Origin: a virus
Direction: 5' to 3' (one strand)
Virus record (IMG/VR): IMGVR_UViG_3300036851_000411
Span: 1 to 64,000 of that record
Length of the DNA stretch: 64,000 nt
Below the pieces are notes generated by a model that was not told the origin of the DNA, made no database searches, and worked only from the letters and a program-made list of their open reading frames with translations. Made by a program: the position numbers and the translations under genes. Of this stretch, positions 245 to 63,261 are shown piece by piece (the first letter of the stretch is position 1; each line of letters starts with the position of its first letter).

Positions 245-322
245 GTGCGTTAGGCGGTCTGGCAACGTTGCTGGCAAACCGGCGCACACAACGCTGTCCC
301 AACCCTGGCAAGGGGGGACGGT

Positions 323-1258
323 ATGGCTCCATCGATGCGACCGCTGGGCGTGCCCGGCGAGGCGACCGTTGCGGTCGCCGTGGCTTCACGAACGTTCGGC
401 AAGCGCGACGGCGCCTGCTGCCTTCGGGACTTCGATTTCGACGGCGAGTGCCCCGACCATCATCGATGTCCGGGCCCGTGCAACCGGAGCATCGAGCGGG
501 CGTTCACGCTCTGCACGGAGTGCGCGGCGAAGGCTGACGTAGTCTCGCCCGCCGTCGTTGCTGCGATAGCTCCTACGGCGCTGCCTTCGGTGCCCGCGGC
601 CGATGGCGATGCCACGGAGTGGCAGAAGGTCCACGCGGAAGGCCTGGCGTGGCTGGAGGACGCGGCGGCGCATTCGCGCGTCGAGTCGGCGGAGTCACGG
701 CACGCTGAGTATCGGCGAGTTGCCGAGGCGCTGATACCTGGACGTAGTGAGGATAGCGAGCATCTCCCGCGCGTCGTGCTCGCGCTGCTCGACGACATCG
801 CGGACAGCCGGCAGCTCGGCCGGATCAGCATTTACCACCTCGTCACTGCGAACGCGCGCATTCGAGATGACGTTGGTCGCGCGAGCTGCATCTGGTGTCA
901 CTGGTCGTTTGAGTCATCGGTCCCGCTGACGGATCGCGGCGACGGCCTCTCCTCGGCGGCGATCGAGAGCGATGCCGAGGCGATGGCGCGCATCACGCGC
1001 GAGCGCCGCGTGGAATCGATAGCCGCGATCAAGGCGCACGTTGCCGAGTGCCCGAGCCATCCGATGCGTGGTCTGGAGCGAGCGATCGCTGCCGCCTGCG
1101 CGATCATCGAGACCGGTGACCAGCGGTTGCTTGCTGGCGACGGCCCAGCAGGCGGTCAGCCGCCGGAGCTGTCGCTCGCCGAGTGGAAGGAGATGTATGA
1201 CGCGCTCGATCGGGCACGGACGACTGCCGCGCGACGCATCGGCGTGGCGGGGCGATGA
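323..1258 (+). CDS. Hypothetical phage protein with Cys/His clusters
   Basis: Long ORF, RBS-like GGGGGA, stop overlaps next start (ATGA). Confidence 0.65.
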   Translation: MAPSMRPLGVPGEATVAVAVASRTFGKRDGACCLRDFDFDGECPDHHRCPGPCNRSIERAFTLCTECAAKADVVSPAVVAAIAPTALPSVPAADGDATEWQKVHAEGLAWLEDAAAHSRVESAESRHAEYRRVAEALIPGRSEDSEHLPRVVLALLDDIADSRQLGRISIYHLVTANARIRDDVGRASCIWCHWSFESSVPLTDRGDGLSSAAIESDAEAMARITRERRVESIAAIKAHVAECPSHPMRGLERAIAAACAIIETGDQRLLAGDGPAGGQPPELSLAEWKEMYDALDRARTTAARRIGVAGR

Positions 1259-1596
1259 CGACTGCCGCGCTGGAGCGTGAGATCCGACTTTCTACCGCCG
1301 CCTCGTTGCGTGTGGTCGACGGCGCACTCGAGGTGAAGATCGAGGACGCACTGCCAGGCCGGTGGCTGCAGTATCTCGATGCTGCGCAGACGGCGGAGCT
1401 GCGCGACGCGTTGAACACGCTCGCGGCACCGGTCGCACTCACGCGCCTCGCGTGGACTGCCGACATGGGCAACGTGTTCTGGTGGGCGTTCCCCGTCGAG
1501 CAGGCGCCGTACGTCGGGACGCCGCTCGATGAGGCGTTCCCCGAGCACTGCACGCACTGGACGCCGCTCATCATCCCGCGGAGGCCGGGACGATGA
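1255..1596 (+). CDS. Hypothetical protein with a C-terminal THW motif
   Basis: Translationally coupled; ends HCTHWTPL as in many small phage early proteins. Confidence 0.65.
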   Translation: MTTAALEREIRLSTAASLRVVDGALEVKIEDALPGRWLQYLDAAQTAELRDALNTLAAPVALTRLAWTADMGNVFWWAFPVEQAPYVGTPLDEAFPEHCTHWTPLIIPRRPGR

Positions 1597-2030
1597 GCGC
1601 CTTCACACCGCTATGGGACGAGCGGCTGCTACTCGTGAACGAGTGGCTTGTGGCCATCGCGTCCTGCGGGCGGCAGTTCTTCCATCGCATCGATGGGACG
1701 GTCGCGCAGTTCGCGATCGACGGCCGCGGGCGCCTCGTGTACCTCGATCGCTGCGACGCCCATGCCATCGTCGTGAACCGGCGCGCCCGCTGGCGTGGGT
1801 TCTCCGAGGGGTCGACGCTCAAGTGGTTTGTGGAGATGCTGGCGGACTACGTCCGCAGCGCTGAGACGATCCCCGCGGACTGTTGCGTATTCACGCATTG
1901 GGGCTACGGGGACGCAGCGTTAGGTGTCATCGAGACCGGGCGCCGCCTTGGGGTGGTCGTCGGCACGCGCACGAAGCCGTTCACGCAATACGGAAAGGCG
2001 CCGACGGCCATGGTAGAGGTGACGCCGTGA
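1593..2030 (+). CDS. Hypothetical phage protein
   Basis: ATGA/GTGA coupling on both sides. Confidence 0.65.
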   Translation: MSAFTPLWDERLLLVNEWLVAIASCGRQFFHRIDGTVAQFAIDGRGRLVYLDRCDAHAIVVNRRARWRGFSEGSTLKWFVEMLADYVRSAETIPADCCVFTHWGYGDAALGVIETGRRLGVVVGTRTKPFTQYGKAPTAMVEVTP

Positions 2031-2293
2031 GCGCTTTTGACATGGGATTTGATGAGCGTGGGAACCCGCGCGTCTCCTTTGGCGATTCGCTCAAGGATTG
2101 GACGGCGTCGATGCGCGAGATGCGGAAGGTCGTCGAGCAGAACACGACGCCGGCAGGGTTCGTCCGCAAGACGATCAAGATGCGTGGCGTGGTCGTCGGG
2201 ATCGTCGTGCCGACCGACCTCACAGCGGCCGAGCTCCAACAGCTCCACGCCGTCCTCGATGACATCGCGGCGAAGCAGCAGGCGACGCCATGA
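2027..2293 (+). CDS. Hypothetical protein
   Basis: GTG start overlaps the upstream stop. Confidence 0.55.
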   Translation: MSAFDMGFDERGNPRVSFGDSLKDWTASMREMRKVVEQNTTPAGFVRKTIKMRGVVVGIVVPTDLTAAELQQLHAVLDDIAAKQQATP

Positions 2294-2523
2294 ACGCCGA
2301 GAACGCGCCGACCCGCCACACGATGACCATCGTGCGCACCGAGCAGGTGAACTACGCGCACGTCCGCGTCGAGTTGTCTGGCGCTGAGCCCTGTACGCTC
2401 GTCCCACCGACCGGCGCGACGCGGCTCGATCTCACCGTTCCGAACCGTGAGGCTCCAGCGTTCCCGATCGGCGCACGGTTCACGGTCACCATCGAGCCTG
2501 ACCTGGCGGAGCCGTTGCCATGA
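2290..2523 (+). CDS. Hypothetical protein
   Basis: Coupled ORF in the operon. Confidence 0.55.
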   Translation: MNAENAPTRHTMTIVRTEQVNYAHVRVELSGAEPCTLVPPTGATRLDLTVPNREAPAFPIGARFTVTIEPDLAEPLP

Positions 2524-2885
2524 GCCGCGGCGTCAATCCGTGGCAGAGCGACCCGGCCGCCGTCTCCTACACCGACGACAGCGACGGCCGCACGCCGCTC
2601 CCCGTGCCACCTGAAGCGCCGCGGCGCGGGGATCTCGTGCGACGGCTGGACCGGAATATCTGGCAAGTCATCGAGACGAGCGGACACAGCCCGCAGTTCG
2701 GGGTCTGGCAGGTGTCGCTCGCGTTCGTGAGCGGGAAGGCCGCACTCCCGGTCACCAACGGGCCTGAGCATCCGATCCTGTGGGTGGCGCGCGCGCCGAC
2801 GGACGATCGGCTGCACCACTGGCAGGAGGCGTACGGCTACGTCGCCTACGATCCCGGGACGGGCGAGGAGGCATCCCATGCCTAA
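2520..2885 (+). CDS. Hypothetical protein
   Basis: Coupled ORF in the operon. Confidence 0.55.
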   Translation: MSRGVNPWQSDPAAVSYTDDSDGRTPLPVPPEAPRRGDLVRRLDRNIWQVIETSGHSPQFGVWQVSLAFVSGKAALPVTNGPEHPILWVARAPTDDRLHHWQEAYGYVAYDPGTGEEASHA

Positions 2886-3420
2886 CGCACTTAGCCCACT
2901 CGAACCGCTCGGCGACCTCCGCGCTCTTACGCTGACCGAGCCGTGGGCAACGCTGATGGCGTTCCGCGAGAAGTGGTGGGAGACGCGGAGCTGGGGCACG
3001 AGCTACCGGGGCTGGGTGGCCATCCATGCCGCGAAGGGGATGCCGCGCGATGCACTCGCCGCCTGTACGCTCAATCCGTTCTGGGTCGCGCTGCACCGCC
3101 ACGGGTGCGTCGATGTCGAGGTCGCACCAGCGTACCAGCTCATCACGACGTTCGACGAGACGCGCGGCCGGATCGTCGCCATTGGGCGCGTCGTGTCCTG
3201 CGTGAGGATCACGCCCGAGTTCGCGCATCGCATGGCGACGCAGCAGCCCGTGCCGCCCGCGCATGCGGAGCACGAATTCGCGTTTGGGGATTACACGCCG
3301 GGCCGGTTCGCCTGGCGGTTCGCCGAGGTCGTTCGCGTTGAGCCGATCGCGACGCGCGGCGCGTTAGGGCTCTGGACCGTTCCCGAGGATGTCCGTAGCC
3401 AACTGAGGGCCGCCGCATGA
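2878..3420 (+). CDS. ASCH domain protein
   Basis: ALTLTEPWATL..KWWETRSWGTSYRGWVAIHAAK...RGALGLW signature. Confidence 0.85.
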   Translation: MPNALSPLEPLGDLRALTLTEPWATLMAFREKWWETRSWGTSYRGWVAIHAAKGMPRDALAACTLNPFWVALHRHGCVDVEVAPAYQLITTFDETRGRIVAIGRVVSCVRITPEFAHRMATQQPVPPAHAEHEFAFGDYTPGRFAWRFAEVVRVEPIATRGALGLWTVPEDVRSQLRAAA

Positions 3421-3596
3421 AGCGCTTCAGCTGGCTCATCGGACTCTATGGCGCCGTCGGCGTCGTCATCGGGGTCACGTTGCTCATCACGGAGCGCGCG
3501 CCCGCCCAGCCCTGCCGGATCTTCGCGACCGTCGGCGCGGCGATGGTGCTTGTGTCGGCGATCATCGACGGCATCGAGGAGGACGCCCATGCCTAA
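3417..3596 (+). CDS. Small two-TM membrane protein (59 aa)
   Basis: MKRFSWLIGLYGAVGVVIGVTLLI...FATVGAAMVLVSAII; fills the gap with coupled start and stop. Confidence 0.6.
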   Translation: MKRFSWLIGLYGAVGVVIGVTLLITERAPAQPCRIFATVGAAMVLVSAIIDGIEEDAHA

Positions 3597-4089
3597 CGGT
3601 GCCGTCGTTGGGGCGGCCGGCGCTTCCGAGATTCGGTTCTACCGCGCAAGCGACCAGCCGTACGGCGCGTTCTCGAATCTCTTGCGTTGCCAGATGGTGT
3701 TCGAGGACCGGGCGTTCCCGACCGCCGAACACGCTTACCAGTTCGGCAAGGCGGCGAAGCACAACGTTCGCGAGTGGCTCATGTCGGCGCCGTCGCCATC
3801 GCTCCTCGCGGTCACGGCGCACAACCTCCTGCCGTGGGACATCGTCCCCAACTGGACGCGCATCAAGGTCGACCGCATGCGCCGCGTGCTCCACGCGAAG
3901 TTCACTCAGCACGAGGATCTCCGCGCCCTGCTGATCGGCACCGGGAGCGCCCGCATCGTCGAGTGCGCCACGGTCAACAACGCCGTCAACCGGTTCTGGG
4001 GCGAGGTGAACGGGAAGGGCGAGAACACGCTCGGCGTACTCCTCATGGAGCTGCGGGCCGAGATGGCGACGGAGGCGACCAATGCCTAA
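3589..4089 (+). CDS. NADAR (YbiA-like) family hydrolase
   Basis: IRFYRA..PYGAFSN..FPTAEHAYQ..K, KFTQH..LR.LL..TG, FWG...GENTLGVLLMELR. Confidence 0.88.
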   Translation: MPNGAVVGAAGASEIRFYRASDQPYGAFSNLLRCQMVFEDRAFPTAEHAYQFGKAAKHNVREWLMSAPSPSLLAVTAHNLLPWDIVPNWTRIKVDRMRRVLHAKFTQHEDLRALLIGTGSARIVECATVNNAVNRFWGEVNGKGENTLGVLLMELRAEMATEATNA

Positions 4090-4726
4090 GCCGGCGCCTA
4101 ACGGCTTCTCGGTTTTGGCCGCGGATCCGCCGTGGTTCTACGCGCACTCGCGGTCCACCTCGCGCAAGATCGACACGCACTACCCGACAATGCGCACCGC
4201 GGACATCGCCGCGCTCGACGTGGCCGCGCTCTGCGATCCCGCCGGCGCCGTCTGCTACCTCTGGGTACCAGCACCCAAGCTGTTCGAAGGGATGCTGGTC
4301 CTCGCGGCGTGGGGCTTCGCGTACAAGACGCATCGCGTGTGGGACAAAATGCAGATCGGCATGGGCTACTGGACGCGTGGGAAGCATGAGGACCTGCTGA
4401 TCGGTACCACCGGGCGGAAGTCACCGCCCGCACCGGCCAACCGCCCGCCGTCTCTCCTGCACGAGGCGCGGTCCAAGGTCCACTCCCGGAAGCCGACGCT
4501 CGCACGCCAGCAGATCGAAGCGGCGCATCCACACGAAGAACGCCTCGAGCTGTTCGCGCGGGAGACGCACCCGGGGTGGACCGCGTGGGGACACGGCGTC
4601 GAGAGCGCCGTGTCCATCGGCACGCGTGCCCGCTCGACGATGCTCCCGCTCGTCAACCGCATCCAACACGACATCGCCCGGCAGCTGCTCGTGCCGATGG
4701 GCGAACCTATGGAGGGCGAGGAATAG
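4082..4726 (+). CDS. MT-A70 family N6-adenine methyltransferase
   Basis: ADPPW, HYPTM, GMGYWTRGKHE, HSRKP and LELFARE motifs. Confidence 0.9.
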   Translation: MPKPAPNGFSVLAADPPWFYAHSRSTSRKIDTHYPTMRTADIAALDVAALCDPAGAVCYLWVPAPKLFEGMLVLAAWGFAYKTHRVWDKMQIGMGYWTRGKHEDLLIGTTGRKSPPAPANRPPSLLHEARSKVHSRKPTLARQQIEAAHPHEERLELFARETHPGWTAWGHGVESAVSIGTRARSTMLPLVNRIQHDIARQLLVPMGEPMEGEE

Positions 4727-5101
4727 ATGCGCATCACCGATACCCCGCCGTCGAGCCATGCGCCGACGACGAGCCGCCGCAAGCAGTGGCCGACGCTCGA
4801 CGAGGTGCTCGCCCTCATGGTGGCGACCGGCGCAGTGCTGGTGCGCGTCCCAACCTCGGCCGGGTTTCAAACGATCGTCGGCGGGACGGAGGTCCACGGC
4901 CGCACGTACCAGGTGCTCTATCAACGGCGCTATATCCGCATGAAGACGGACGCCGCCGGTCACATCCGCGGGCATTATGAGCTGTCGCCGTTAGGCGCGG
5001 CGCACGCCCGCTCACGCGAGGCCTTTCGGGCGGCGACACAGAATCTCCAGGCGGTCGCGGAAGCGGACGCGCAGGCGTCGGCCGCACGGAGGTCCGCATG
5101 A
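4727..5101 (+). CDS. Hypothetical protein
   Basis: Adjacent ORF in the operon. Confidence 0.55.
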   Translation: MRITDTPPSSHAPTTSRRKQWPTLDEVLALMVATGAVLVRVPTSAGFQTIVGGTEVHGRTYQVLYQRRYIRMKTDAAGHIRGHYELSPLGAAHARSREAFRAATQNLQAVAEADAQASAARRSA

Positions 5102-5493
5102 GGCACGATGGCGCCGAGCGGCGTCCGCGAACGGGGATGGATGCCACGGACCGCGTGCGCGTGTCGACGGCCGAACAGACCGAAGGGCTCGGGCTGTTCG
5201 CGCAGACCAAGCCCAAGCCGCGGCGGATGGCCGACACGAGCATCAGCGCCGAGGCGAAGGAGGCCGCGCATCGCGAGATCCACAAGGTGATCTGTCGCCA
5301 GGCAATTCGCGAAGCGAAGGGCGACGGCATCACGCGGCAGGAAATCTCGGACCGCACGGGCCTCAAGGTGAACACCGTCAACGCCCGATGCCGGGAGATC
5401 CTCGACGACACCGGCGAAGGCGTCGGGATCTTCGGTCGGCGTGGCGCGGAGAGCGTGCTCATGGAAGTGGGATACAGCGGCGGGAGGGCCTAA
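5098..5493 (+). CDS. Winged-helix DNA-binding protein
   Basis: GITRQEISDRTGLKVNTVNARCREI HTH. Confidence 0.65.
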   Translation: MRHDGAERRPRTGMDATDRVRVSTAEQTEGLGLFAQTKPKPRRMADTSISAEAKEAAHREIHKVICRQAIREAKGDGITRQEISDRTGLKVNTVNARCREILDDTGEGVGIFGRRGAESVLMEVGYSGGRA

Positions 5494-5494
5494 C

Positions 5495-5959
5495 GTGGCC
5501 AATCACAGCGAACGGCGAGAGCAGGCACGTGCCCGCGAGCAACTCGCCGAGATCGTGGCCCGGCGCAAGGGCGACATCCGTGACTACCTGCGCGTCCACG
5601 ACCGTGGCCGAGAGGCGATCGAGGTCCTGAGCGAACCCGAGAACGCGGCGATACGTGTGGGATCGTGGCTGACCGATGTATTTCGTCGCGGCAACGCTGG
5701 GGCGTACGCCGAATGTGAGACAATCCTCGCGATGCTGACGTTGCTCAGCGATGCCGAGGGCGATCGGATCGACCTGGCGAGCGCGCTGCTCTCGTTAGGA
5801 ATCGGACCTGACCCGCGGTTCGGCGTCGAGGCGATCGACATCGCCGCCATCGGGCGCATGGGCGACCGGCCATTCAGCGCGCCGGCCGCGCGTCCGCTCA
5901 CCATCGAGGAAGCCGACGCGGTGATCGCCGCATGGCGGGAGGCAACCCGTGGACGCTGA
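5495..5959 (+). CDS. Hypothetical protein
   Basis: GTG start after GGAGG. Confidence 0.55.
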   Translation: MANHSERREQARAREQLAEIVARRKGDIRDYLRVHDRGREAIEVLSEPENAAIRVGSWLTDVFRRGNAGAYAECETILAMLTLLSDAEGDRIDLASALLSLGIGPDPRFGVEAIDIAAIGRMGDRPFSAPAARPLTIEEADAVIAAWREATRGR

Positions 5960-41367: not shown

Positions 41368-41403
41368 TGTGTGTCTCTCACATTCAAACGGGACCGACGA
41401 CCT

Positions 41404-42466: not shown

Positions 42467-42484
42467 CAGCTGTCCCACGAAGGT

Positions 42485-42523
42485 GCGGCGGCGTCCCGAG
42501 CGGGGCGCCGCCGCTCGTTGTTT
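42485..42523 (+). terminator. Intrinsic terminator after the moron
   Basis: GCGGCGGCGTCCC-GAGC-GGGGCGCCGCCGC-TCGTTGTTT. Confidence 0.75.
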
Positions 42524-42535
42524 CCATCTCGGGCG

Positions 42536-42563
42536 TTGAGTATATGTGATAATCGCATAGATT
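42536..42563 (+). promoter_or_regulatory. Class I promoter/operator upstream of the tape measure gene
   Basis: TTGAGT-A-TATGTGATAATCGCA-TAGATT. Confidence 0.8.
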
Positions 42564-42593
42564 CCCCGGCATGCCTCGGCCGGAGCGCGCGCC

Positions 42594-45500
42594 CTGAGCA
42601 CCTACACGCTCAATATTGCGATCAACGCTGGGCCGGCCCAAGCGGGCGGCCAGCTGGTCGTCCGCACGCTCGAGGAGATCAAGGCCGCAGCACAGCAGAC
42701 CGTCGCGGCGGTCTCGCAGTCGAACCAACTGCTCGGCCAGATCCTCGGTGCCGTGCAGACTGGTGCACAGCAAGGGGCCAACGGTGTCAAGCAGCTCAGC
42801 GCCCAGGTCTCCGCGCTCCAGCGGACGATGCAGAGCGCATGGGCGGTCGCCAAGCAGTGGCTCGCGTTCGCGGGGATCGGGCTCGGCGTCAAGCAACTCA
42901 TCGACTACGCCGACGGCTACCGGCTCGTCGAAGGGCGCATCAAGCTCACGACGAAGTCGACCGACGAGCTGCGCGCCGTCGAGGCGAAGCTGTTCGAGGT
43001 CGCCAACGCGACGCGCACGAGCTACGCGGCGACGGCCGATCTCTATTCGAAGGTCGCGCGATCGTCCGGTGAGCTCGGGATCAGCCAGCGGCAGGTCGTC
43101 ACACTGACGCAGGCCGTCGGCCAAGCCCTGCAGATCTCCGGTGCGAGCACCGGGGAGGCGACGGCGGCGACGCTCCAGCTCGGGCAGGCGTTCAGCTCCG
43201 CGCGCCTCAGCGGCGACGAGCTGCGGTCCGTGCTTGAAAATGCGCCGCGCCTCGCCAAGGCAGTCGCCGACGGCATGGGCGTCACGGTGGGCCAGCTCCG
43301 CACGTTAGGCTCGCAGGGGAAGCTCACTGGCGAAGCCGTCGCGAAAGCGATTCTCAGCCAGGCCGACGCGCTCAACCGGGAATTCAAGAGCGTCCCGCTC
43401 ACGATCGGCCAGAGCTTTACGGTTCTGGGCAACTACATCCAGCGGTACGTCGGCTGGTCGGACCGCGCGACGGGTGCCAGTGCGCTGCTGGCGCGCACGA
43501 TCATCCTGCTCGCGCATAACGTCGACCTCCTCGCCAACTTCGCGATCTACGCCGGGGTCGTATTCCTGCTGTATCGGAACCTGACACTCCTCACCGCCGG
43601 CATGGCGATCGCCCGGGTGGCGGTGCTTGCGCTCGCGGCGGGGAACTGGGCGGGCGTCGCGTCCACGTTAGGCCTCACCGCCGCGGTCAATGGGCTCAAG
43701 GCGGCCATCGCCTCGACCGGCATCGGGCTCCTCCTCATCGCGATCGGCGCCATCGCCGTGGCGCTCTACACGTGGTACCAGCGCACGAAGCAGCAGAAGG
43801 AGGCGCTCCGCGAGCTCTCGGACGAGATCAAGAAGCAGAAGCAGGCGTCCGACAGCGCGCGCGCCAGTGTGCTCAACGAGGCCGCGGCCGATCAGATCCG
43901 GCAGCAGCAGCAGCTCGAGGCGCTCCGCCGCAGTGGGCCCAAGGCACTGGAGCGCGTGCAGAACGTGCAGTCCGATGAGAACGCCGCGCTCGAGGAGGGG
44001 AAACGTCTCTACGGCGAGTATGTGAAGAAGTCCGAAGAGGCGGCGCAAGCCCGCGGCAAAGCTATCACCGTCGAGAGGGATTTCACGAAAGCGCTCGCCG
44101 GTGGCAACAAGGAGGCGCAGGCCTTCCTCCTTATCGCTGCCGAGACGGCGCTCCGGAAGCGTGCGGTCACCACCGAGACGGAGCTCGTCACGAAGGCAAT
44201 CGAGATCCAGAACGACCGCCTCGAGAAGGAAGCCGACGCGTGGGCGACGGTGGGGCAGGCCGTGCGTCAGGCACAGCGCGACGGCGCTGGGCTCAAGACG
44301 CTCACCACGGCGTATCAGAACGCGGAGACGCGGGCGCGCGCCGCGGCTGGGGCCTCTGGTGGCTACGCGCTCGCGTTAGGGAACGAGCTGCGCGCGATCG
44401 AGAACTACGTCAAGGAGGCCGAGCGCGCGACGGAGATCGGGGAGGCGATCAACGGGCTGTCGTTCGACGCCGCGGCGATCGTGACGAAAGAGATGAACGC
44501 GCGCTACAAGCTCGCCGACGCCCTCGACGAGCAGACGCGGAAGACAAAGGACCTCGCCCGACTCCAGGCCGAGGCGCAGAACCGACAGCTCAAGGCGACG
44601 CTCCCGTCCACCCCGCCCAAGAGCGCCTTTGCGCAGGCGAACGACGCCGAGGAGGGGGACATCGCGGCCCGCATTCAGGCGCGGGCGCAGGAGATGAAAC
44701 TCATCGTCGAGAACGTGTTCCGCGGCATGCAGGAGTCGGCGGCGCAGTTCTTCCTCAACGTCTTCACGCAGGGTATCCGCTCGTTTCGCGATCTGTTCAA
44801 CAGCATCCGGCTGCTCTTCCTCCAGATGCTGGCGCAACTGGCCGCCGCGAAGCTCGTGACGAAGCTGCGCGACACGATCCGCGCGCAGGTCGGCGGGGTG
44901 AGCGAAGACGGCCTGACGAAGATCGCGCCCACTTCGCCCGGGTACGGGACCGCTGCATCGAAGCTCGGGGCGGCGGGCCAGGTGGCCGGCGCCGTGGGAT
45001 TCGTCGCCTCCATCATCACGGGCTTCGGCAACACCCTCGCCAAGAGCCGCGACCAGGCGAAATACGGCGGGGCGGCGTTAGGCTTCGCCGCGTTCGGCCC
45101 GGTCGGGGCACTGGCCGGCGCCGCGCTCTCGCTCGCGGGGTTCGACAAGAAAGCGAAGGCCGCGGCGAAGGCAATGGCTGAGGCGCAGAAGGAGTTCGCG
45201 CGCAACCTCGACAGCTTCGTGGCGACGGCGTTCGGCACCGGCTCGGGGCTCGCCGACGCGTTGCGCGCGAATCAGCAGGCGCGGGACGAGCTCCGGAAAG
45301 AAGCCAACGTGGCGCTCTCGGGCAAGAAAAACGAGAAGGTCCGTAACCAGCAACTCGAGGAGATCGACACCGCGACGAAAGCCAATGCCGCTCGGCTGGC
45401 GAAGGAGTTCACCGACGGCATCGAGGCGCAGATCAACGCCCTCACCGGGAAGAGCGACCTCAACGCGCGGGCCGCGCTGGAAAAGGAGTACGCCGAGAAC

Positions 45501-46979
45501 CTCCGCAACGCCGCCGCGGCGGGCTCCGACGCTGCCAGGGTGACGGAACTCTACAACCTCAAGCTCAAGGCCCTCAACGACGAGGTGGCGCGCGCCGCGG
45601 CCAGCATCGGGGCCAACGTTGGCGCACGCGAAGCGTTGTTAGGCGGGCGGGGCGACGAGGCGCAGGGGATCGCTGCCAGGGAGACGGCCGCCGCCGCGCT
45701 GTTCGAAGCGCAAAAGCTCTATCAGGCCGGCACCATCAGCGAGGAGCTGTTCAAGCGACTCGCCGCCGTCATCGAGGGCGAGCTCAATCGCTCGCTCGAT
45801 CAGATCGCGCAGGAGGCGAAGCAGCGCGCTGGCGATCTCGAGGCGCGTCGGCTCACGGCGGCTGGCCAGACGCAGGAAGCCGACGCGCTCCGGTTCAAGC
45901 TCGCACAGGAGAAGGAACTCAACGACGCCGTCGCAGCCGGCACCTCGGCGGCGGAGATCGCCACGCTCCGATACGTGCAGGCGCTGGAGGCCGAGGCGTT
46001 CGCCAAGGCGCAGGCGCAGCAGAAAGCTGACGCCGCGGGCGAGTTCCAGGTGCGCGCACTGCTCGCGCAGGGCCGCACGCAGGAGGCCGACGCCATGCGG
46101 ATCCAGCTCGCCAACGAGAAGGAGCTGCGCGACGCGCGCGAGCTCGGCATCGAGTCGCTGGTGAAGGAGACGCAGGCGCTGGAAGCCGCCACGCGCGCTC
46201 GCGAGGCTGCTGCTGCCGCCGCCAACGCGCTGGCCGATCTCGAGATACGGAAGCTCCAGGCGGAGGGCCGAACCGCCGACGCCGATGCGCGACGGCTCGA
46301 TCTGCAGCAGGCGCAGGAGCGCGAGCAGTTCGCGAAACAGTTCGGCGAAGACTCGCCGGTCTTCAAGCAGCTGCTGGAAGTGCAGCGGTTGGAGAAGGAG
46401 CGAAAGACCGCCGAAGCCGCCAGCGCCCTTGCGGGGAGCACCAGCGCCGCTCCAGGCCCGAGTAATGGTGCCGTGGTGTCGAGTGGGTTCCAGGCGATCT
46501 CGCGCGAGGCGGGCGATCGGTTGGCCGACTACGGGCGGACCGCGCTCATCGTGTTCCGCGAAATCCGGCAGGATACGGCGACGCTCCCGAAACTGCTGGA
46601 CGCGTTCCGCGCCGGCCAGTTCCCGTTAGGGGGAGCGTTAGGCGGTCCGACGGCGGCACCCGCGGCGATCGCGCCGTCACCAGCTGCCAGTGCGTTCGCC
46701 CAGACTGCCACGACCGCCAGCCCGGGTTTTGTGTCCGCGTTCGGCGCGGGATCGACCGGAAGCACCGCTCCGCCGAGCACCGGCACGCACGGCCCGCTCA
46801 TCGGGCAGATCACATTCGACGTGGTGGTCGCCGCCGATGTGCCCGACGCGAAGGCGAAAGGGCAGGAGATCGCGGACGCCGCGCTGGAGCGCTTCATGGA
46901 GCGCATCGACGAAGGGCTCTTCGACCGTCTCGCTCGCCAGGACGCGGCGCGCGGTAGCACCACGCTGAGCATCCAATGA
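42594..46979 (+). CDS. Tape measure protein (probable CTG start)
   Basis: Ala-rich helical protein of about 1460 aa with tape-measure domain QLGQAF.S.RL.GDELRSVLEN.PRLA. Confidence 0.9.
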   Translation: MSTYTLNIAINAGPAQAGGQLVVRTLEEIKAAAQQTVAAVSQSNQLLGQILGAVQTGAQQGANGVKQLSAQVSALQRTMQSAWAVAKQWLAFAGIGLGVKQLIDYADGYRLVEGRIKLTTKSTDELRAVEAKLFEVANATRTSYAATADLYSKVARSSGELGISQRQVVTLTQAVGQALQISGASTGEATAATLQLGQAFSSARLSGDELRSVLENAPRLAKAVADGMGVTVGQLRTLGSQGKLTGEAVAKAILSQADALNREFKSVPLTIGQSFTVLGNYIQRYVGWSDRATGASALLARTIILLAHNVDLLANFAIYAGVVFLLYRNLTLLTAGMAIARVAVLALAAGNWAGVASTLGLTAAVNGLKAAIASTGIGLLLIAIGAIAVALYTWYQRTKQQKEALRELSDEIKKQKQASDSARASVLNEAAADQIRQQQQLEALRRSGPKALERVQNVQSDENAALEEGKRLYGEYVKKSEEAAQARGKAITVERDFTKALAGGNKEAQAFLLIAAETALRKRAVTTETELVTKAIEIQNDRLEKEADAWATVGQAVRQAQRDGAGLKTLTTAYQNAETRARAAAGASGGYALALGNELRAIENYVKEAERATEIGEAINGLSFDAAAIVTKEMNARYKLADALDEQTRKTKDLARLQAEAQNRQLKATLPSTPPKSAFAQANDAEEGDIAARIQARAQEMKLIVENVFRGMQESAAQFFLNVFTQGIRSFRDLFNSIRLLFLQMLAQLAAAKLVTKLRDTIRAQVGGVSEDGLTKIAPTSPGYGTAASKLGAAGQVAGAVGFVASIITGFGNTLAKSRDQAKYGGAALGFAAFGPVGALAGAALSLAGFDKKAKAAAKAMAEAQKEFARNLDSFVATAFGTGSGLADALRANQQARDELRKEANVALSGKKNEKVRNQQLEEIDTATKANAARLAKEFTDGIEAQINALTGKSDLNARAALEKEYAENLRNAAAAGSDAARVTELYNLKLKALNDEVARAAASIGANVGAREALLGGRGDEAQGIAARETAAAALFEAQKLYQAGTISEELFKRLAAVIEGELNRSLDQIAQEAKQRAGDLEARRLTAAGQTQEADALRFKLAQEKELNDAVAAGTSAAEIATLRYVQALEAEAFAKAQAQQKADAAGEFQVRALLAQGRTQEADAMRIQLANEKELRDARELGIESLVKETQALEAATRAREAAAAAANALADLEIRKLQAEGRTADADARRLDLQQAQEREQFAKQFGEDSPVFKQLLEVQRLEKERKTAEAASALAGSTSAAPGPSNGAVVSSGFQAISREAGDRLADYGRTALIVFREIRQDTATLPKLLDAFRAGQFPLGGALGGPTAAPAAIAPSPAASAFAQTATTASPGFVSAFGAGSTGSTAPPSTGTHGPLIGQITFDVVVAADVPDAKAKGQEIADAALERFMERIDEGLFDRLARQDAARGSTTLSIQ

Positions 46980-51603: not shown

Positions 51604-51960
51604 ATGGCACTCGCGAAGCTGAAACTCTCAGGGTCCACGGATGGGAAGCCGATCAAGGTCGCGGCCACCGCGATCGGGTCCGGCACGACCATTCACACCG
51701 CGCAGTCGGGCACCTCGTTCCTCGATGAAATCTGGCTGTGGGTGTCGAATACCGACTCGGTTGAGCGCACGCTCACCATCGGGCACGGCGGCACGACGGA
51801 CCCGGATGACCTAACGCTCAAAGCCGTCACGATCGCCGCGAACTCTGGCCCACAATGCATCTCGCCAGGGCTCCCCCTGCAGAACTCCCTCATCGTGAAA
51901 GCCGCGGCGAGTGTGGCGAACGTGCTCACGATCACCGGCCACGTCAACCGGCAGAGCTAA
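51604..51960 (+). CDS. Minor tail protein
   Basis: LSGSTDGKPIKVAAT...DEIWLW...PGL.L..S..VKA; beta-rich. Confidence 0.6.
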   Translation: MALAKLKLSGSTDGKPIKVAATAIGSGTTIHTAQSGTSFLDEIWLWVSNTDSVERTLTIGHGGTTDPDDLTLKAVTIAANSGPQCISPGLPLQNSLIVKAAASVANVLTITGHVNRQS

Positions 51961-53066
51961 TGACCGGGCGTCGTGGGACTCCGTGGGATGAGCACCGACT
52001 GACGAACGTCGGGGCTGGTGCGGGCGTGTTCAAGCGAAAGACGGCCGGTGCGCTCGAGCTGCGCACGATCACCGGCGGGGTCGGCATCACCGTCACGGAG
52101 AACGCGAACGAGATCACGCTCGACACTGGTGGCGGCGGCGGCGGGACGTTCGACCCGAATTACACCGTCGCCGATGGCATCCGCCAATCGCCGTGGATTC
52201 CCGAGTTGCGCCGCATGGTGGTCGCGCGCCGTAACTCCGGCCTGATGGTGTTCGTTGATCCCGTCTTGAAAACGACGGAGGAACGCACCGCGCACGGCGC
52301 GACGACCGATGCAACGCCGACCTGTGCATACGACCCGACGAACTTCCAACTCTTTGTCAGCAACTACATCAACGGCGGAGGGACGAAGGTCCACGTCCTC
52401 GATCTCACCACGCTACAACGCATTGCCGAAATAACCGTTGGCACTGGCCCGCTCGGCATCGCCTGGTGCCCGACGAACGACTGCATCTACGTCGTCAACG
52501 TTTTTAGCAACTCTGTTTCGGTCATCAGCACATCGTCGCTCACAGTCGTGGCGACCGTAACAGTCGGGACGCTGCCCATTGGGATCTGTTATTGCCCCTC
52601 GAATGACTCGATGTACGTCGGGAACCGCACATCGAATTCTGTCTCGGTGATCGCCTGCTCGAGCAACACGGTCACGGCGACCATCACGTCGATGGGCGCG
52701 GCGGATTGCCCGTTCTACGTGCCGAGTAGTGACGAAGTCATCGTCACCGCAACAACGGCGAACGTTCACAAGTGGATCAATCCATCAACAAACGTCGCCA
52801 CGTCGCTCACGACGAACGGATTTAGCAATTGTCGTGGTGGCACCTACGTCCCGCCGACGGACGAATACTGGATGGCTGCCGGGAACGGTCGCTTTGAGGT
52901 CTACGATGCCGCGACCAATAATGCCGTCACGACCATCACGACGGCGGGGGTGGGCGCGCCTGCCTATTGTCCGATCACCGAGCAAGTCATCTATCGCGAT
53001 GAAGGGGAAAGCTATTGGGCGATTATTGATCCGGCGACTCGGAATATTGCCTACATGGGATTCTAA
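51960..53066 (+). CDS. YVTN/YncE-type beta-propeller tail fibre or receptor-binding protein
   Basis: Repeated YV.N..SNSVSVI...V.ATI.VG..P.GI blades; N-terminal NVGAGAGVFK...LELRTI. Confidence 0.8.
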   Translation: MTGRRGTPWDEHRLTNVGAGAGVFKRKTAGALELRTITGGVGITVTENANEITLDTGGGGGGTFDPNYTVADGIRQSPWIPELRRMVVARRNSGLMVFVDPVLKTTEERTAHGATTDATPTCAYDPTNFQLFVSNYINGGGTKVHVLDLTTLQRIAEITVGTGPLGIAWCPTNDCIYVVNVFSNSVSVISTSSLTVVATVTVGTLPIGICYCPSNDSMYVGNRTSNSVSVIACSSNTVTATITSMGAADCPFYVPSSDEVIVTATTANVHKWINPSTNVATSLTTNGFSNCRGGTYVPPTDEYWMAAGNGRFEVYDAATNNAVTTITTAGVGAPAYCPITEQVIYRDEGESYWAIIDPATRNIAYMGF

Positions 53067-53085
53067 CCATCCAACCGCCACCGCA

Positions 53086-53544
53086 ATGAACCCGACCAAT
53101 CTTGAGCTCGTGAGGTGGGTGCTCGGAGTCGCCGGGACGCTCGTTGTCACGGCGATCACCCTAGCGTGGCGCTTCCATCGTCACAGCATGAGCGAGGTAC
53201 GGCGATCGACGGAGGAAGCCGGGAAGCAAACCGCCGCCATCACGAAGATTTCGACCTTTCTCGAGGAGACGCTCCCTCTCAAGCTGGGTGAGGCGCAGAG
53301 CAACGTCGTAGACCGCGTCACGAAGAACTCGGACTTGGGATTCGAGCGAGTGAACGGCCGGATCGACGGCATCGATTCGATGTACCGAGGCCTCACCCGC
53401 GAGCTGGACGGCGCGAAGGGCGACATCAAGCGGCACGACGCGCAGCTCGACGACCACGCCCAACGGATCGAGCGCCTCGAGGAAACGCCCCTCAATCGCG
53501 TGCTGGGCTGGCCAGGCACGCAGGCGCCGCCGAAAGCCGACTGA
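53086..53544 (+). CDS. Holin-like/membrane coiled-coil protein
   Basis: Single N-terminal TM plus coiled coil, before the lysis genes. Confidence 0.5.
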   Translation: MNPTNLELVRWVLGVAGTLVVTAITLAWRFHRHSMSEVRRSTEEAGKQTAAITKISTFLEETLPLKLGEAQSNVVDRVTKNSDLGFERVNGRIDGIDSMYRGLTRELDGAKGDIKRHDAQLDDHAQRIERLEETPLNRVLGWPGTQAPPKAD

Positions 53545-53574
53545 TCGCCGACTGGCGCCCCAAAGAACATACCG

Positions 53575-53602
53575 TTGTGTCTATGTGATTATCGCATAGA
53601 TT
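53575..53602 (+). promoter_or_regulatory. Class I promoter/operator upstream of the lysis module
   Basis: TTGTGT-C-TATGTGATTATCGCA-TAGATT. Confidence 0.8.
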
Positions 53603-53609
53603 CAGCGGC

Positions 53610-54032
53610 ATGGTTCCCGAGAGCACGACCGTGCCGCGGGGGTGGCCAGACCCGCACAACACCCCGTGGGGCTACTTCATCGGCCATCCGAAGACGGAGT
53701 GGCTCTTCGGTGACGACGGGGACCGGATGCGGCTCTGTCAGGACTTCGCGTACTGGGACCGCCGGTCGATCCGCTGGGTCGCGCGCGAAGGGCTGGAATT
53801 CGACGGCGCCAGCAAGCCGCGGTTCTTGTGGTGGGGCGGGGGACCGTACGAGGGCCGCTATCGTCGTGCGGCGATCATCCACGACGCGCTCTATCACGAC
53901 CGCCGCGTCGATCGCGCCACGGCGGACCGCGTCTTCTACGAGGGCATGCGCGCGGATGGCGTGAGCGCGACGCGCGCGCTCCTCTACTACTGGGCCGTCC
54001 GCTGGTTCGGCCCGCGGTGGGAGCCCGAGTGA
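53610..54032 (+). CDS. DUF1353 protein
   Basis: G..FDGAS.PR..W...AAIIHDALY...ADRVF.E.M...GV...AVR.FG. Confidence 0.85.
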   Translation: MVPESTTVPRGWPDPHNTPWGYFIGHPKTEWLFGDDGDRMRLCQDFAYWDRRSIRWVAREGLEFDGASKPRFLWWGGGPYEGRYRRAAIIHDALYHDRRVDRATADRVFYEGMRADGVSATRALLYYWAVRWFGPRWEPE

Positions 54033-54709
54033 CGACGGCGCATGCGTTCCCGACCTTTCGCGTGCTCGCGCCGGAGCTCCGGCCGCGGCGGTTGCAGCTG
54101 GCGTCGCGCCACTGGCCGGTGCCAGGGCGATGGCTCCGACCGCAAGGGCAGGGGCTGCCCGACCCGAACTGCACGCAGCTCCAGAAGAACATCGTGCTGC
54201 GCATGCACGTCGATCTGGACGAGCTGGAGCAACCGTTAGGCAGCAATTGCTCGCCGTACGTCAACGAGCTGAAAGTCTGGGCGGGGTTCGGCGCCACGGA
54301 GGACGTGCCGTGGTGCGCGATCTGGGTCGCGCGGGTGTGGGTCGACGCCGGAGCGACGGTGCCACGCGACTTCGCGTCAGTCGACAACTGGCTGCCGTAC
54401 CTGGTGCCGTTCGACAGCCTCTCGCCGCGCCAGCGCGTTGGTTGTGCGATCGCCTACGGGAAACGCGGAGCCGGTGACCCGAGCGCGGACGTGGCGGACA
54501 TGCGGCGGCGCGGGTGGGACGGCAAGCACCTCGAGCTCATCAAGCGCGAGCACCCGGAGCTGACACTCGTGCAGGGCGGGAACCGCGGGTACGCGGGCCT
54601 CGTCGGCAAGCTCGATCTCGGTCCGAACACCAACAACGGGTTCGCGATCGATTCGGCGCCGCTCGTCCGCACCGACGTGCTCGGGCTGATCATCCCGGCG
54701 GCGGCCTAA
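54029..54709 (+). CDS. CHAP/NlpC-like endolysin
   Basis: E.P.GSN, PWCAIWV, H-x-E-L, VQGGN. Confidence 0.65.
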   Translation: MTTAHAFPTFRVLAPELRPRRLQLASRHWPVPGRWLRPQGQGLPDPNCTQLQKNIVLRMHVDLDELEQPLGSNCSPYVNELKVWAGFGATEDVPWCAIWVARVWVDAGATVPRDFASVDNWLPYLVPFDSLSPRQRVGCAIAYGKRGAGDPSADVADMRRRGWDGKHLELIKREHPELTLVQGGNRGYAGLVGKLDLGPNTNNGFAIDSAPLVRTDVLGLIIPAAA

Positions 54710-61650: not shown

Positions 61651-62597
61651 CCGCCGCCGCGCTCGTCCGCCCCTCTCCGCGCAACGTGGCCGCCATCCTC
61701 GATGCACTCGCCGCGCCGTTCGCGGCCGAGCATGTCGGATGGATGCTGCGCGATGGGAAGCTCGACAACAACGTGCCGAAATCGGTGGCGGTGCCGTTCA
61801 TCGACATCTGCGCCGTGATGGACCGGCTCGACCAGGTGCTCGGACCGGAGAACTGGAAGGACGACTACCGTCCGGTGCCGAATTCCACGACGGGCTTGCT
61901 CTGCGAGCTCTCGATCCGGATCTGGCGTGAGGACGAGGGCTACACGTGGCTCACGAAGGTCGATGGTGCCGACCCGACGGCGATCGAGCGCACGAAAGGG
62001 GGGATTTCGAGCGCGATGAAGCGCGCCGCGGTGCGGTTCGGCATCGGTCGCTATCTGCACCGGCTGCCCAAGATGTACGCGTCGTTCGTGCTCGACCGGA
62101 GGCGACAGGGCCCGGGGAGGTACTTCGGCTATGTCAAGGCGTCGAAGGACGACAAGCGCGGTGTTGGCTTTGCGTGGAACCCGCCGACGTTGCCGTCGTG
62201 GGCACTGCCTAACGGCAGCGGATGGCCGGGGCCGACGCGCACGAGCGAAGGAGACAAAAAGGGAGACACAAAGACTGACCGGACCCGAGGCGGCCAGAGC
62301 AACGCTGCCGCCGCCTCACATACCGCTGGGGCGGCAGGAGTCCCTGCCGGCGGGGTGTCTGAGTCAGGGTCGTCGTCCGAAGGCGCCCCCATCGACCCAT
62401 GCCGCATCGAGCTTCCAAAGCTGATCGGCTTCACCGACCTGCGCGGCGTGCCGTTAGGCAAGATCCCGGTCGCCGATCTCCGACGTATCCACCGGCACGT
62501 CGAGAAGCGGAAGCCGCACTTGGCGGAGAAGGTTGCGCACGTGATCGCTGCGTGCGAACAGGCCCCCGGAGGGCGCATCGATGACCTGCCGTTCTGA
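61647..62597 (+). CDS. Rad52/Rad22 (Sak) single-strand annealing protein
   Basis: LAAPF, FID..AVMDRLD.VLGPENW, KGG.S.AMKRAAVRFGIGRYL..LP. Confidence 0.9.
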   Translation: MTAAALVRPSPRNVAAILDALAAPFAAEHVGWMLRDGKLDNNVPKSVAVPFIDICAVMDRLDQVLGPENWKDDYRPVPNSTTGLLCELSIRIWREDEGYTWLTKVDGADPTAIERTKGGISSAMKRAAVRFGIGRYLHRLPKMYASFVLDRRRQGPGRYFGYVKASKDDKRGVGFAWNPPTLPSWALPNGSGWPGPTRTSEGDKKGDTKTDRTRGGQSNAAAASHTAGAAGVPAGGVSESGSSSEGAPIDPCRIELPKLIGFTDLRGVPLGKIPVADLRRIHRHVEKRKPHLAEKVAHVIAACEQAPGGRIDDLPF

Positions 62598-62608
62598 GGG
62601 CGTCGGCC

Positions 62609-62965
62609 ATGGCGATCACCGAGAAGAGTGCTCGGTGCCGCAAGTGCGGATGGTTCCTCCCGGAACCGCCCGCCGAGCAGGCCTGCGGCATGTGTGGCAG
62701 TGGAGCGGGCGACCCGATCGAGCTGACGGCGCTCGACCGCATCTACCTCCTGGTGCGGGCGGCGCAGCGGTTGCGGGCGAAGCTGGAATCCGAGGCCGGG
62801 CTCGACGATCGGACGTACTGGGACCGGAAGCTGTTCAACCACTACATCGACCAGGACCAGCAGCCGTCCCCGGAAGGGTTCACGGTGCAGACGCCGATCG
62901 CCGACATGGCCAGGAAGATCAAGGAGGAGTCGGGGGTCTGGCGTCAGGCGGGGTGCCCGGTATGA
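62609..62965 (+). CDS. Zinc-ribbon protein
   Basis: CRKCG...CGMCGS. Confidence 0.55.
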   Translation: MAITEKSARCRKCGWFLPEPPAEQACGMCGSGAGDPIELTALDRIYLLVRAAQRLRAKLESEAGLDDRTYWDRKLFNHYIDQDQQPSPEGFTVQTPIADMARKIKEESGVWRQAGCPV

Positions 62966-63261
62966 CGCGCCCGAAACCACGATGCGAATGGTGCGGTGCC
63001 GTGATTCCCGCCCGGCGATTGGAGCGGGTGAGTTCCATGCGTGGCGCGTGGAGCTTCTGCTCGGATCACTGCGAGCGCGATGAGCGCGTCGCGAACGCTG
63101 GCGGCGGGGATGGCGAAGTGGCTGACGTTAGGCAACCGCGCTGCTCCGCGGAGTCCTGCGCTTGTGGCGCGTATCGCCCGCGGGACGACGGCGAGGAGGC
63201 ATGCCACTGCGGGTGCCGGTGGTGCGACAACTCTCTCTTTCAGCCAGAGCGGATCGACTGA
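62962..63261 (+). CDS. Cys-rich protein
   Basis: CEWCG..IP..RL...FCSDHC. Confidence 0.55.
   Translation: MTRPKPRCEWCGAVIPARRLERVSSMRGAWSFCSDHCERDERVANAGGGDGEVADVRQPRCSAESCACGAYRPRDDGEEACHCGCRWCDNSLFQPERID

Follow-up and report, generated by a model that had tools for sequence, protein, structure and literature searches.

The heptamer CGTTAGG, hyper-abundant in a prophage, is the local dialect, CGTTAGG(C), of a chromosome-wide word with the core GTTAGG, which reads YGTTAGGC in most hosts and marks a subset of soil Gemmatimonadota at 0.1–1.6 copies per kb. The DNA of the prophage has been overwritten with this word to host level, on both strands, wherever the protein tolerates it. By analogy with known systems, the word is a putative self word of the uptake-signal type, a reading that we hold tentatively and rate as quite possible, short of probable.

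Copies of the word in the prophage

The window, that is, the whole stretch of 64,000 nucleotides analysed here, belongs to an 82-kb contig that is a prophage integrated in tRNA-Pro(GGG) of a Gemmatimonadota host. The tRNA-Pro sequence at attL has exact matches in Gemmatimonadota MAGs only, and the host is therefore assigned to that phylum. The features discussed below are:

110–183, + strand: tRNA-Pro(GGG), called by ARAGORN
142–185, + strand: attL, 44 bp (3′ part of the tRNA), with an exact direct repeat at contig 69046–69089, beyond the window (attR)
248–63132, both strands (41 +, 28 −): CGTTAGG copies, mostly CGTTAGGC, located by exact search and judged against shuffle and Markov nulls
2878–2887, + strand: word-built gene junction ATG-CCT-AAC-G, the Met-Pro-Asn start of gene 2878–3420, whose TAA stops gene 2520–2885
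5489–5495, − strand: word-supplied stop GCC-TAA-CG of gene 5098–5493
39717–39753, + strand: tandem array of four copies with a 10-bp period and a CACGTTAGGG-type unit, located by exact search
39754–43302, no strand: longest copy-free stretch in late-gene DNA, GC 0.64, including a lower-GC insert at ~41.3–42.5 kb
43303–46642, + strand: tape-measure gene with six sense-strand copies, all in frame NCG-TTA-GGN (X-Leu-Gly)
51817–54233, no strand: second copy-free stretch, GC 0.63, with lower-GC gene(s) after the tail fibre

The prophage appears intact and has exact 44-bp att repeats. Relatives were sought in several ways. Blastn with 8 kb of the phage against 50,697 phage records gave no match, no phage record exceeds 33% identity in TerL, and neither scans for TerL patterns in viral, genome and metagenome contigs nor a search of 20 word-rich genomes turned up a relative. 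The tail-fibre tip gave a sole match, G001, a provirus that is 63% identical in this tip and otherwise unrelated (TerL 24% identical); it holds 25 copies in 30 kb, and in the segment homologous between the two proviruses the copy positions differ.

An exact search found 69 copies of CGTTAGG in the window, 41 on the + and 28 on the − strand, which are the very numbers that a sequence-only reading had reached by hand, and the outermost coordinates, 248 and 63126–63132, agree as well. The copies are dispersed at a density of about 1 per 0.93 kb. That reading had also claimed an excess over chance, and 100 dinucleotide-preserving shuffles of the window bear it out with 3.28 ± 1.97 copies and a maximum of 10. 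Its GC estimate by eye (67–68%) is matched by 66.5%, and for the seven or so TGTTAGG/CCTAACA variants that it reported, the counts are 7 (window) and 8 (whole contig). Over the 82-kb contig there are 87 copies (47+/40−) where Markov models of order 0–3 expect 1.6–6.6, and 63 of the 87 lie within the 8-mer CGTTAGGC. An order-5 Markov model, proposed beforehand as a check, expects 45 copies against 47 observed on the + strand, but this null is invalid for a 7-mer because its 6-mers are frequent only through the motif itself. The codon-preserving null proposed alongside it leaves the enrichment standing: a synonymous-codon shuffle that holds proteins and codon usage constant yields 2.36 ± 1.57 in-gene copies (maximum 8, n = 500), compared with 46 observed. 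In the phage, the copies are spaced more evenly than random (CV 0.79, P = 0.009, 6-mer core). The word also shows a shortage of closely spaced pairs and, in a few cases, inverted pairs that make hairpins.

The sites used are NCG-TTA-GGC for X-Leu-Gly, CCT-AAC for Pro-Asn, TAA or TAG stops, and spacers. With GC3-based gene calls, one reading frame dominates among the coding copies, which mostly read NCG-TTA-GGC; the six copies of the tape-measure gene are typical in this respect. The impression that the rare TTA codon is mostly due to the motif proved correct, since 27 of 34 TTA codons lie within CG-TTA-GG. Gene ends of the form GCC-TAA-CG were found as predicted at 5493, 12802, 26488, 30058, 34305, 38063, 51600, 54709, 55425 and 55805, and those of the form CGT-TAG-G at 12255, 15192 and 37152; altogether, 13 stops of these two kinds occur in the window beyond that at 5493, and TAA ends 30 of the 94 called genes. 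The ATG-CCT-AAC start noticed at 2878 is likewise real, and the same junction design recurs, as had been reported, at 3589, 7617 and 9783. Copies occur in both orientations relative to transcription. The reported absence of the motif from a low-GC moron and from a second region also stands, with no exact copy in 39754–43302 and zero in 51817–54233. Copies form in situ, and recently acquired low-GC inserts are still without the word.

The word in Gemmatimonadota chromosomes

Most of 401 sampled Gemmatimonadota genomes contain 10–40 copies of CGTTAGGC, and about 20 contain 450–4,469; a reversed control word occurs 130–290 times per genome, compared with up to 4,469 for CGTTAGGC. (G067, G107, G167 and G192 enter these survey counts only, with no individual claim made on them.) The peak host density is 0.97 per kb for the 8-mer and 1.6 per kb for the 6-mer core. 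For instance, 400 kb of G410 hold 181 copies against 4.7–8 expected. De novo k-mer ranking places YGTTAGGC first in G410, G292 and G228, and in word-poor relatives the same ranking returned no such hyper-abundant word. The word is shared out between genes and spacers in proportion, and its flanking-base logo differs among G228/G285/G393, G292/G410 and the phage, as dialects would. Permissive [S/P/T/A]-Leu-Gly sites are spelled with the word in 52% of cases in the prophage and 26–49% in four hosts, these being related hosts of slightly different dialects, and in 0 of 131 in a word-poor relative.

In an RpoB tree of 21 rows (quick FastTree, with the mis-extracted G116, G009, G012 and G007 left out), the word-rich genomes form one clade that also contains word-poor members. 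The word-poor G006, G008 and G260 are nested within it and carry no replacement word; therefore, loss or repeated gain of the reader is needed. The sequence-only reading had proposed a lineage-specific signal that the phage has accumulated. Lineage specificity stands, as a subset is rich, the rest lie near background and the prophage is at host saturation; the signal is, however, a property of the host lineage and is not special to the phage. It had further stated that the motif is none of those already described, in agreement with our literature search, in which no paper describing or naming the GTTAGG word was found.

These counts bear directly on whether the copies are regulatory sites private to the phage, namely repressor stoperators, or sites at which a phage protein acts in packaging or partition. 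The many copies at gene junctions and the phased array would fit such sites, and in cluster A mycobacteriophages the stoperators, which are asymmetric 13-bp sites bound by the repressor, are similarly dispersed in many copies that often overlap starts and stops. Stoperators, however, are private to their phage and co-oriented with transcription, whereas the GTTAGG word belongs to the host and lies in both orientations. Thousands of copies in host chromosomes, 13 copies in the 13 kb of DNA beyond attR and the copies in unrelated proviruses speak against this explanation, which is refuted by the host counts and which we regard as having next to no chance of being right.

Similarly, strand distribution bears on a classical Chi site, which would switch RecBCD or AddAB from degradation to repair and be accumulated by phages for the sake of their linear DNA. 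An asymmetric 7–8-mer over-represented in host and phage is what such a site looks like, and Chi itself is indeed short and asymmetric, marks self DNA and can build up in phages. The proposed check of replichore strand bias nevertheless revealed no polarity in G410 or G292. In G410, 20 windows of a 1.7-Mb contig gave 98+/89−, with the strands mixed throughout (the initial 20 kb has 7+/6−), and in G292 the figures were 261+/253− for 40 windows of a 5.3-Mb contig (rho 0.22, P = 0.18); no replichore-scale strand switch was seen along the 60 windows of the two contigs, and local strand bias weakly follows gene strand. The strands of the phage contig are as mixed as its 47+/40− count implies. RecC was found in 2 of 10 word-rich genomes, and neither RecC nor the PDDEXK_1 nuclease gave a match in the three densest, G228, G285 and G393, which are MAGs, so that absence is not proven. 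The 30–60-fold excess also goes far beyond that of known Chi sites, which are much less over-represented. Lacking replichore polarity, and with RecC/AddAB-type nuclease domains not found in the densest genomes, the word is disfavoured as a classical Chi site; this explanation is already largely refuted and in our estimate highly improbable. Among the roles that had been listed for the motif (Chi-like, uptake, nucleoid-protein or methylation-driven), it is the Chi-like one in its classical form that loses ground through the polarity and nuclease results.

Repair drive, intracellular reading and DNA uptake as possible explanations

Elhai reportedly tied the HIP1 palindrome of cyanobacteria to orphan methylases in 2015, and a drive of this type could be imagined here. 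A methyltransferase would mark the word, and methyl-directed or very-short-patch-like repair would convert near-matches in any replicating DNA, so that individual copies need no function. The in situ copies at non-homologous positions are in line with this, and so are the similar saturation of phage, neighbouring island and host and the enrichment of one-off variants such as TGTTAGGC in G410 (42 against ~3 expected). HIP1 (GCGATCGC) likewise is ~100-fold over-represented, is thought to arise in situ and is missing from recently acquired genes, which its scarcity serves to flag (PMC3025956); the GTTAGG word resembles it in its excess and in situ origin, and the low-GC inserts here are without the word. 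The apparently intact prophage is saturated, however, where HIP1 scarcity would mark a recent acquisition. Known words of the HIP kind are palindromic, whereas the GTTAGG word lacks this symmetry. Nor does any cognate methylase follow its distribution: the widespread enzyme of the Eco57I/MmeI type fails to do so, and searches of G292 and G228, the densest pair of genomes examined for this, yielded neither C5 methylase nor Vsr nor N6_N4 methylase. A drive by C5 methylase and Vsr was rejected, as neither turned up in these two genomes. We consider a HIP1-type drive unlikely.

Alternatively, the word may be read inside the cell. A cytoplasmic sequence-specific reader, which could be a nucleoid protein or a component of a defence or nuclease/helicase machine, would bind the word and spare or favour DNA carrying it, which is the logic of Chi without RecBCD, and phages would be directly selected to copy the word and build phased arrays. 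At least three unrelated (pro)viruses (G000, G001 and G003) carry the word at host-like density, phage saturation equals or exceeds the host level, and the spacing in the phage is, as described, more even than random. Arrays phased at 10 bp occur in phage spacers, with 4 copies here and 5 in the (pro)virus G003. The array of the window lies in a 250-bp spacer between the tail tube gene (38123–39592) and late genes (39889–40392), followed downstream by the tail assembly chaperone gene (40413–40781), with neighbours assigned by Pfam; neither a sigma-70 promoter consensus nor that of an intrinsic terminator was found near it. One family of contigs from soil, L300, has a promoter with three CGTTAGG copies in 10-bp phase; this array is conserved, but the spacers between the copies vary. 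Conserved heptamers with free spacers in a chromosomal promoter imply that some protein in these cells reads CGTTAGG repeats, which points to an intracellular DNA-binding protein, unlike an uptake receptor. Perhaps, however, this protein is a distinct regulator whose recognition of GTTAGG is coincidental. The GT4 orthologues of the L300 family in G411, G260 and G312 have other upstream neighbours and no array. Pattern scans for arrays gave 88 matches to a 2-copy pattern in viral contigs and at least 120 to a 3-copy pattern in metagenomes; most were discarded as unrelated, being chance pairs, 7- or 12-bp satellites, or low-GC contigs with a 10-bp GTTAGGTTAC unit, which we take to be insect telomere-like satellites.

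Several observations weigh on the other side. Strand polarity is absent, slippage can produce arrays, and phage HP1 demonstrates that enrichment in a phage is possible without such a reader. No reader was identified, and the single conserved candidate module, a Type IIG (MmeI/Eco57I-like) methylase-nuclease with an SNF2 helicase, was rejected as a sufficient cause. Intact copies occur in 13 word-rich genomes, and the module is broken in four word-poor members of their clade, but a phylum-wide search found intact full-length orthologues in many word-poor genomes, and four word-poor genomes with the intact module have no hyper-abundant word at all. An intracellular self tag is accordingly rated as somewhat unlikely. 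In its boldest form, an undescribed self/non-self system in which an intracellular reader gauges genome-wide word density and word-lacking DNA is degraded, silenced or excluded, it is doubtful. If true, the survival of phages would depend on recoding as much as half of the permissive codons and on adding phased arrays, and a Chi-like principle would exist without RecBCD, polarity or methylation.

We return to the uptake-signal reading. The word would be a self tag comparable to USS in Pasteurellaceae and DUS in Neisseriaceae, and a DNA receptor of the host type IV pilus/ComEC machinery would favour fragments bearing it. Biased uptake followed by recombination would raise the word to about 1 per kb in long-resident DNA, which would include temperate phages, as with Haemophilus phage HP1; the tandem 10-bp array would act as a cluster of high affinity for a protein that reads GTTAGG, be it the same one or another. 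We counted 17 USS cores in the 32.4 kb of HP1 (0.53 per kb), so that uptake systems offer a precedent for a temperate phage that approaches host density.

The traits shared with USS and DUS are an asymmetric 7–8-mer, a density of ~1 per kb, equal representation of both strands and lineage-restricted dialects. USS (AAGTGCGGT core) is also alike in its preferred frame in genes and its near-host density in a temperate phage, whereas the GTTAGG word has 7–8 bp and no AT-rich flank, belongs to another phylum and is patchy within its clade. DUS (GCCGTCTGAA), which is read by the minor pilin ComP, resembles the word in density, non-polarity, dialects and occasional inverted hairpin pairs; unlike DUS, the word is proportional to coding and non-coding DNA and is not concentrated in terminators. 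ComEC is present in 10 of 10 word-rich and 9 of 10 word-poor genomes, and secretin and DprA in 5 of 5 word-rich genomes tested. Word-poor genomes have such genes just as often, and many bacteria that are not transformable have them too, so that their presence is only permissive. The word-poor genomes nested within the word-rich clade also count against the uptake reading. No report of natural competence in Gemmatimonadota was found in the literature searched.

Implications for Gemmatimonadota and their phages

To our knowledge, hyper-abundant words that pervade a genome are few, either understood (USS, DUS, Chi) or recorded without an explanation (HIP1), and each of the earlier ones opened a piece of DNA biology. 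The GTTAGG word matches those densities in a poorly studied, largely uncultured soil phylum, where some quarter to half of the permissive Leu-Gly sites are made to use TTA, the rarest codon. As the word is common to hosts and prophages, it is of practical use as a marker, both for predicting the hosts of Gemmatimonadota viruses in metagenomes and for recognising recently acquired DNA. Should it turn out to be an uptake signal, it would be the first of its kind beyond the Proteobacteria, with the implication that abundant soil bacteria undergo sequence-selective natural transformation; otherwise, the reader of the word would be new biology.

Abundance and placement of CGTTAGG in the phage record

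Exact search of the window locates 69 copies of CGTTAGG (41 on the plus and 28 on the minus strand) between 248 and 63132, which bears out the earlier hand count. Dinucleotide-preserving shuffles of the window give 3.3 ± 2.0 copies, with a maximum of 10. The window comprises positions 1 to 64,000 of a single virus record of 82,133 bp and 66.5% GC. That record contains 87 copies (47 plus, 40 minus) versus the 1.6–6.6 expected under Markov models of order 0 to 3, and 63 of the 87 are in the extended form CGTTAGGC. The test that matters is a synonymous-codon shuffle, which preserves every protein and the codon usage. It yields 2.4 ± 1.6 intragenic copies against an observed 46, and the enrichment claimed by the sequence-only reading therefore stands. 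The order-5 Markov check proposed in that reading was also run. No excess of the word is seen in the record under order-5 or maximum-order models, but this test is invalid because its input 6-mers are frequent only through the motif. Spacing along the phage is more even than random for the 6-mer core (CV 0.79, P=0.009), and not significantly so for the 7-mer.

With GC3-based gene calls, the sense-strand copies in phage genes are almost all NCG-TTA-GGN, encoding X-Leu-Gly, and those in antisense supply stops (GCC-TAA-CG), starts (ATG-CCT-AAC) or a Pro-Asn pair (CCT-AAC). The motif holds 27 of the 34 TTA codons of the phage genes, and TAA terminates 30 of the 94 called genes. The stop, start and codon anatomy described earlier is retained under these calls. 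So is the absence from lower-GC DNA, since exact search of the window returns 0 copies in both the 39.8–43.3 kb and the 51.8–54.2 kb stretches. One array is present, and no promoter or terminator consensus was found flanking it:

39717-39753, four tandem copies of the word with a 10-bp period, in the spacer that follows the tail tube gene

The prophage and the adjoining element

The features that delimit the prophage, and the integrase beyond its end, are as follows.

110-183, tRNA-Pro(GGG)
contig 69046-69089, exact recurrence of the last 44 bp of the tRNA-Pro
contig 70524-71762, minus strand, second tyrosine integrase, past attR and followed by genes without a Pfam family

The exact 44-bp repeat marks attL and attR, and the phage is therefore a prophage about 69 kb long. 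At least 120 genome contigs, all from Gemmatimonadota MAGs (Gemmatimonadales and Longimicrobiales), carry an identical tRNA-Pro. Homologues of the second integrase adjoin tRNA-Pro in many Gemmatimonadota genomes. The DNA past attR (contig 69090-82133, L089:6957-20000) suggests a second integrated element or island, and is probably an element integrated in tandem at the same tRNA-Pro. It carries 13 copies of the word in 13 kb, or 1 per kb.

By Pfam, the late region is of siphovirus type, with a Mu-like portal, a MuF/protease fusion, a tail tube and a tape measure, and a C5 methylase, MT-A70 and NADAR are among the early genes. A 537-aa ORF (26501-28114) is without a Pfam match; relatives of it in phages, with identities of 33% or less, carry the annotation large terminase. 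No close phage relative was found in the searched collections. Directly after attL, a 311-aa ORF (323-1258) has no Pfam match; the prophage's own integrase was not identified. Three further features were observed:

21039-21133, minus strand, an odd 95-nt tRNA (ARAGORN) with anticodon ATC (Asp) and a long variable arm
29985-32675, head-module ORF joining an Acb1-like (anti-CBASS) segment, a Mu F-like domain and an XkdF-type protease
36115-36729, DnaT-like ssDNA-binding protein family (PF20557), within the structural gene block

The word in Gemmatimonadota genomes and other proviruses

Most of the 401 sampled Gemmatimonadota genomes contain 5–40 copies of CGTTAGGC, below the reversed control word, and the tRNA-Pro surroundings in 120 genomes hold 32 copies of the word in 788 kb, which is the chance level. 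About 20 of the 401 have 450 to 4,469 copies, with a top density of 0.97 per kb; in the three densest genomes the core GTTAGG attains 1.4–1.6 per kb. When k-mers of sampled sequence are ranked de novo, YGTTAGGC stands far above all other words in three rich genomes (G410, G292 and G228), and no conserved flanks extend past the 8-mer. That the copies are operators private to the phage is scarcely credible.

The word in the prophage and in Gemmatimonadota genomes: copies of CGTTAGGC, genome size, and share of permissive [S/P/T/A]-Leu-Gly spelled NCG-TTA-GGN (the saturation measure)
Prophage: 27/52 (52%)
G292: 4,469 copies, 7.5 Mb, 26%
G285: 4,141 copies, 4.4 Mb
G228: 3,896 copies, 4.0 Mb, 38%
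G393: 3,479 copies, 4.0 Mb, 49%
G410: 29%
G006, word-poor relative: 0/131

Saturation of the prophage equals that of word-rich hosts. The flanks vary as dialects: in G228, G285 and G393 C follows GTTAGG in 88–99% and the preceding base is relaxed, and in G292 and G410 the form is YGTTAGGC. The prophage and the DNA past attR have a preceding C in 88–100% and a relaxed following base (C in 62–75%). These flanks differ from both host dialects, and the true host would therefore speak a further one. In a quick RpoB tree, read with four mis-extracted rows ignored, a single clade unites the rich and intermediate genomes and also includes the word-poor G006, G008 and G260; the other word-poor genomes lie outside it. 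No alternative hyper-abundant word was found in the nested poor genomes or in four other poor genomes. Small contigs of five otherwise word-poor genomes (G370:C2, G014:C43, G130:C51, G072:C14/C15 and G017:C49) show 3–5 copies in a few kb, always on a single strand; these contigs may belong to phages or islands of word-rich hosts that ended up in the bins.

Within host chromosomes, 77% of copies are fully intragenic, with genes making up 83% of the sequence, and the sense frame xxG-TTA-GGC accounts for 57% of all copies. Distances between copies are nearly random there, except that close pairs are too few, and some small number of inverted pairs could fold into hairpins. Among 40 sampled 20-kb windows of G292, a single one (G292:C1:2660001-2680000, L246) is copy-free. 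It holds a Type I-like N6 methylase (2669114-2670007) and, near its end, a PDDEXK nuclease (2679041-2679391), and is probably a recently acquired restriction island.

Other proviruses also carry the word. G001 (30 kb) has 25 copies versus 4 of the control, and G003 (11 kb) has 9, including a 5-copy array with a 9–10-bp period. The terminases of G001 and the prophage are 24% identical and their tail-fibre C-termini 63% identical, the latter arguing for a similar host range. In a homologous segment of the two (70% nucleotide identity) copy positions differ, some with amino-acid changes, and the copies were therefore made in situ, independently. An intracellular self-tag on which selection acts directly in phages is a possible, if doubtful, account of the word.

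What reads the word

A recombination signal of the classical Chi type is very unlikely. Both orientations occur everywhere in 20 windows of a 1.7-Mb contig of G410 (98/89 by orientation, 7-mers counted) and in 40 windows of a 5.3-Mb contig of G292 (261/253), so that these 60 windows of two long contigs display no polarity and no replichore-scale switch; links of orientation with GC skew or gene strand are weak there. RecC is present in just 2 of 10 rich genomes, and neither RecC nor a PDDEXK_1 nuclease was found in the densest three, all being MAGs in which absence is not proven. A repair drive like that of HIP1 is somewhat less improbable, yet searches of G292 and G228 yielded no C5 methylase, Vsr or N6_N4 methylase.

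An Eco57I/MmeI-like Type IIG methylase-nuclease adjoining an SNF2 helicase is intact in 13 rich genomes. Loci at which the module was viewed:

L481:5040-10504, in G228
L482:5333-9088, in G292
L483, L484 and L485

Homologues of the module occur in 252 of the 401 sampled genomes, unusually stable for a restriction-like module. In four poor genomes the module is disrupted by a frameshift, a truncation or an interruption; these four are every word-poor genome examined that was assigned to the word-rich clade or its vicinity (G006, G008 and G260 placed by the RpoB tree, G412 not placed). As the cause of the word it was rejected: a phylum-wide search recovers intact orthologues in many poor genomes, four of them without any hyper-abundant word.

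At least 120 metagenome contigs bear three or more CGTTAGG with a 10-bp period. Many are low-GC with a GTTAGGTTAC-type unit, and we take these for insect telomere-like satellites, irrelevant here; 51 of those listed have GC of at least 58%, and many come from soil samples. One orthologous contig family (75–85% identical) keeps a triple array about 40–65 bp upstream of a small ORF that precedes a GT4 glycosyltransferase gene and an LPG-synthase-like one:

L300:3380-3620, conserved promoter region of the GT4/LPG-synthase-like operon (orthologues L383, L330, L405, L322, L343 and L347)

Also in this promoter are a GCCTAACA copy and, separately, a near-palindrome (GGTATGATACCTCC..GGAGGTATATTACC). 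Across the family the heptamers of the triple array never change but its 3-bp spacers do, so some protein in these bacteria reads phased CGTTAGG repeats, and it may also be the one that reads the dispersed copies. In viral contigs L085, L050 and L076 (GC 54%), about 15 GCGTTAGGA in both orientations lie within 1.2 kb, an iteron-like cluster of unrelated lower-GC phages.

No paper in the literature searched names the word or ties Gemmatimonadota to an uptake sequence. Among uptake genes, ComEC is present in 10 of 10 rich and 9 of 10 poor genomes, and secretin with DprA in 5 of 5 rich genomes; these genes are permissive only. Haemophilus phage HP1 contains 17 USS cores in 32,355 bp (0.53 per kb), against about 0.8 per kb in its host. 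Near-host density in a temperate phage is therefore just what an uptake-sequence system displays, and in this HP1 resembles the word-saturated prophage described here.

Genome-wide in the host lineage, the word is written at the level of DNA and arises in situ; it has no polarity and comes in dialects. The prophage and the other proviruses carry it at host saturation, and recent inserts are without it. As to what reads the word, we infer, tentatively, that it would be a self word of the uptake-signal type, the single most likely reading judging by the word statistics, its dialects, the precedent of HP1 and the uptake genes that these genomes encode.
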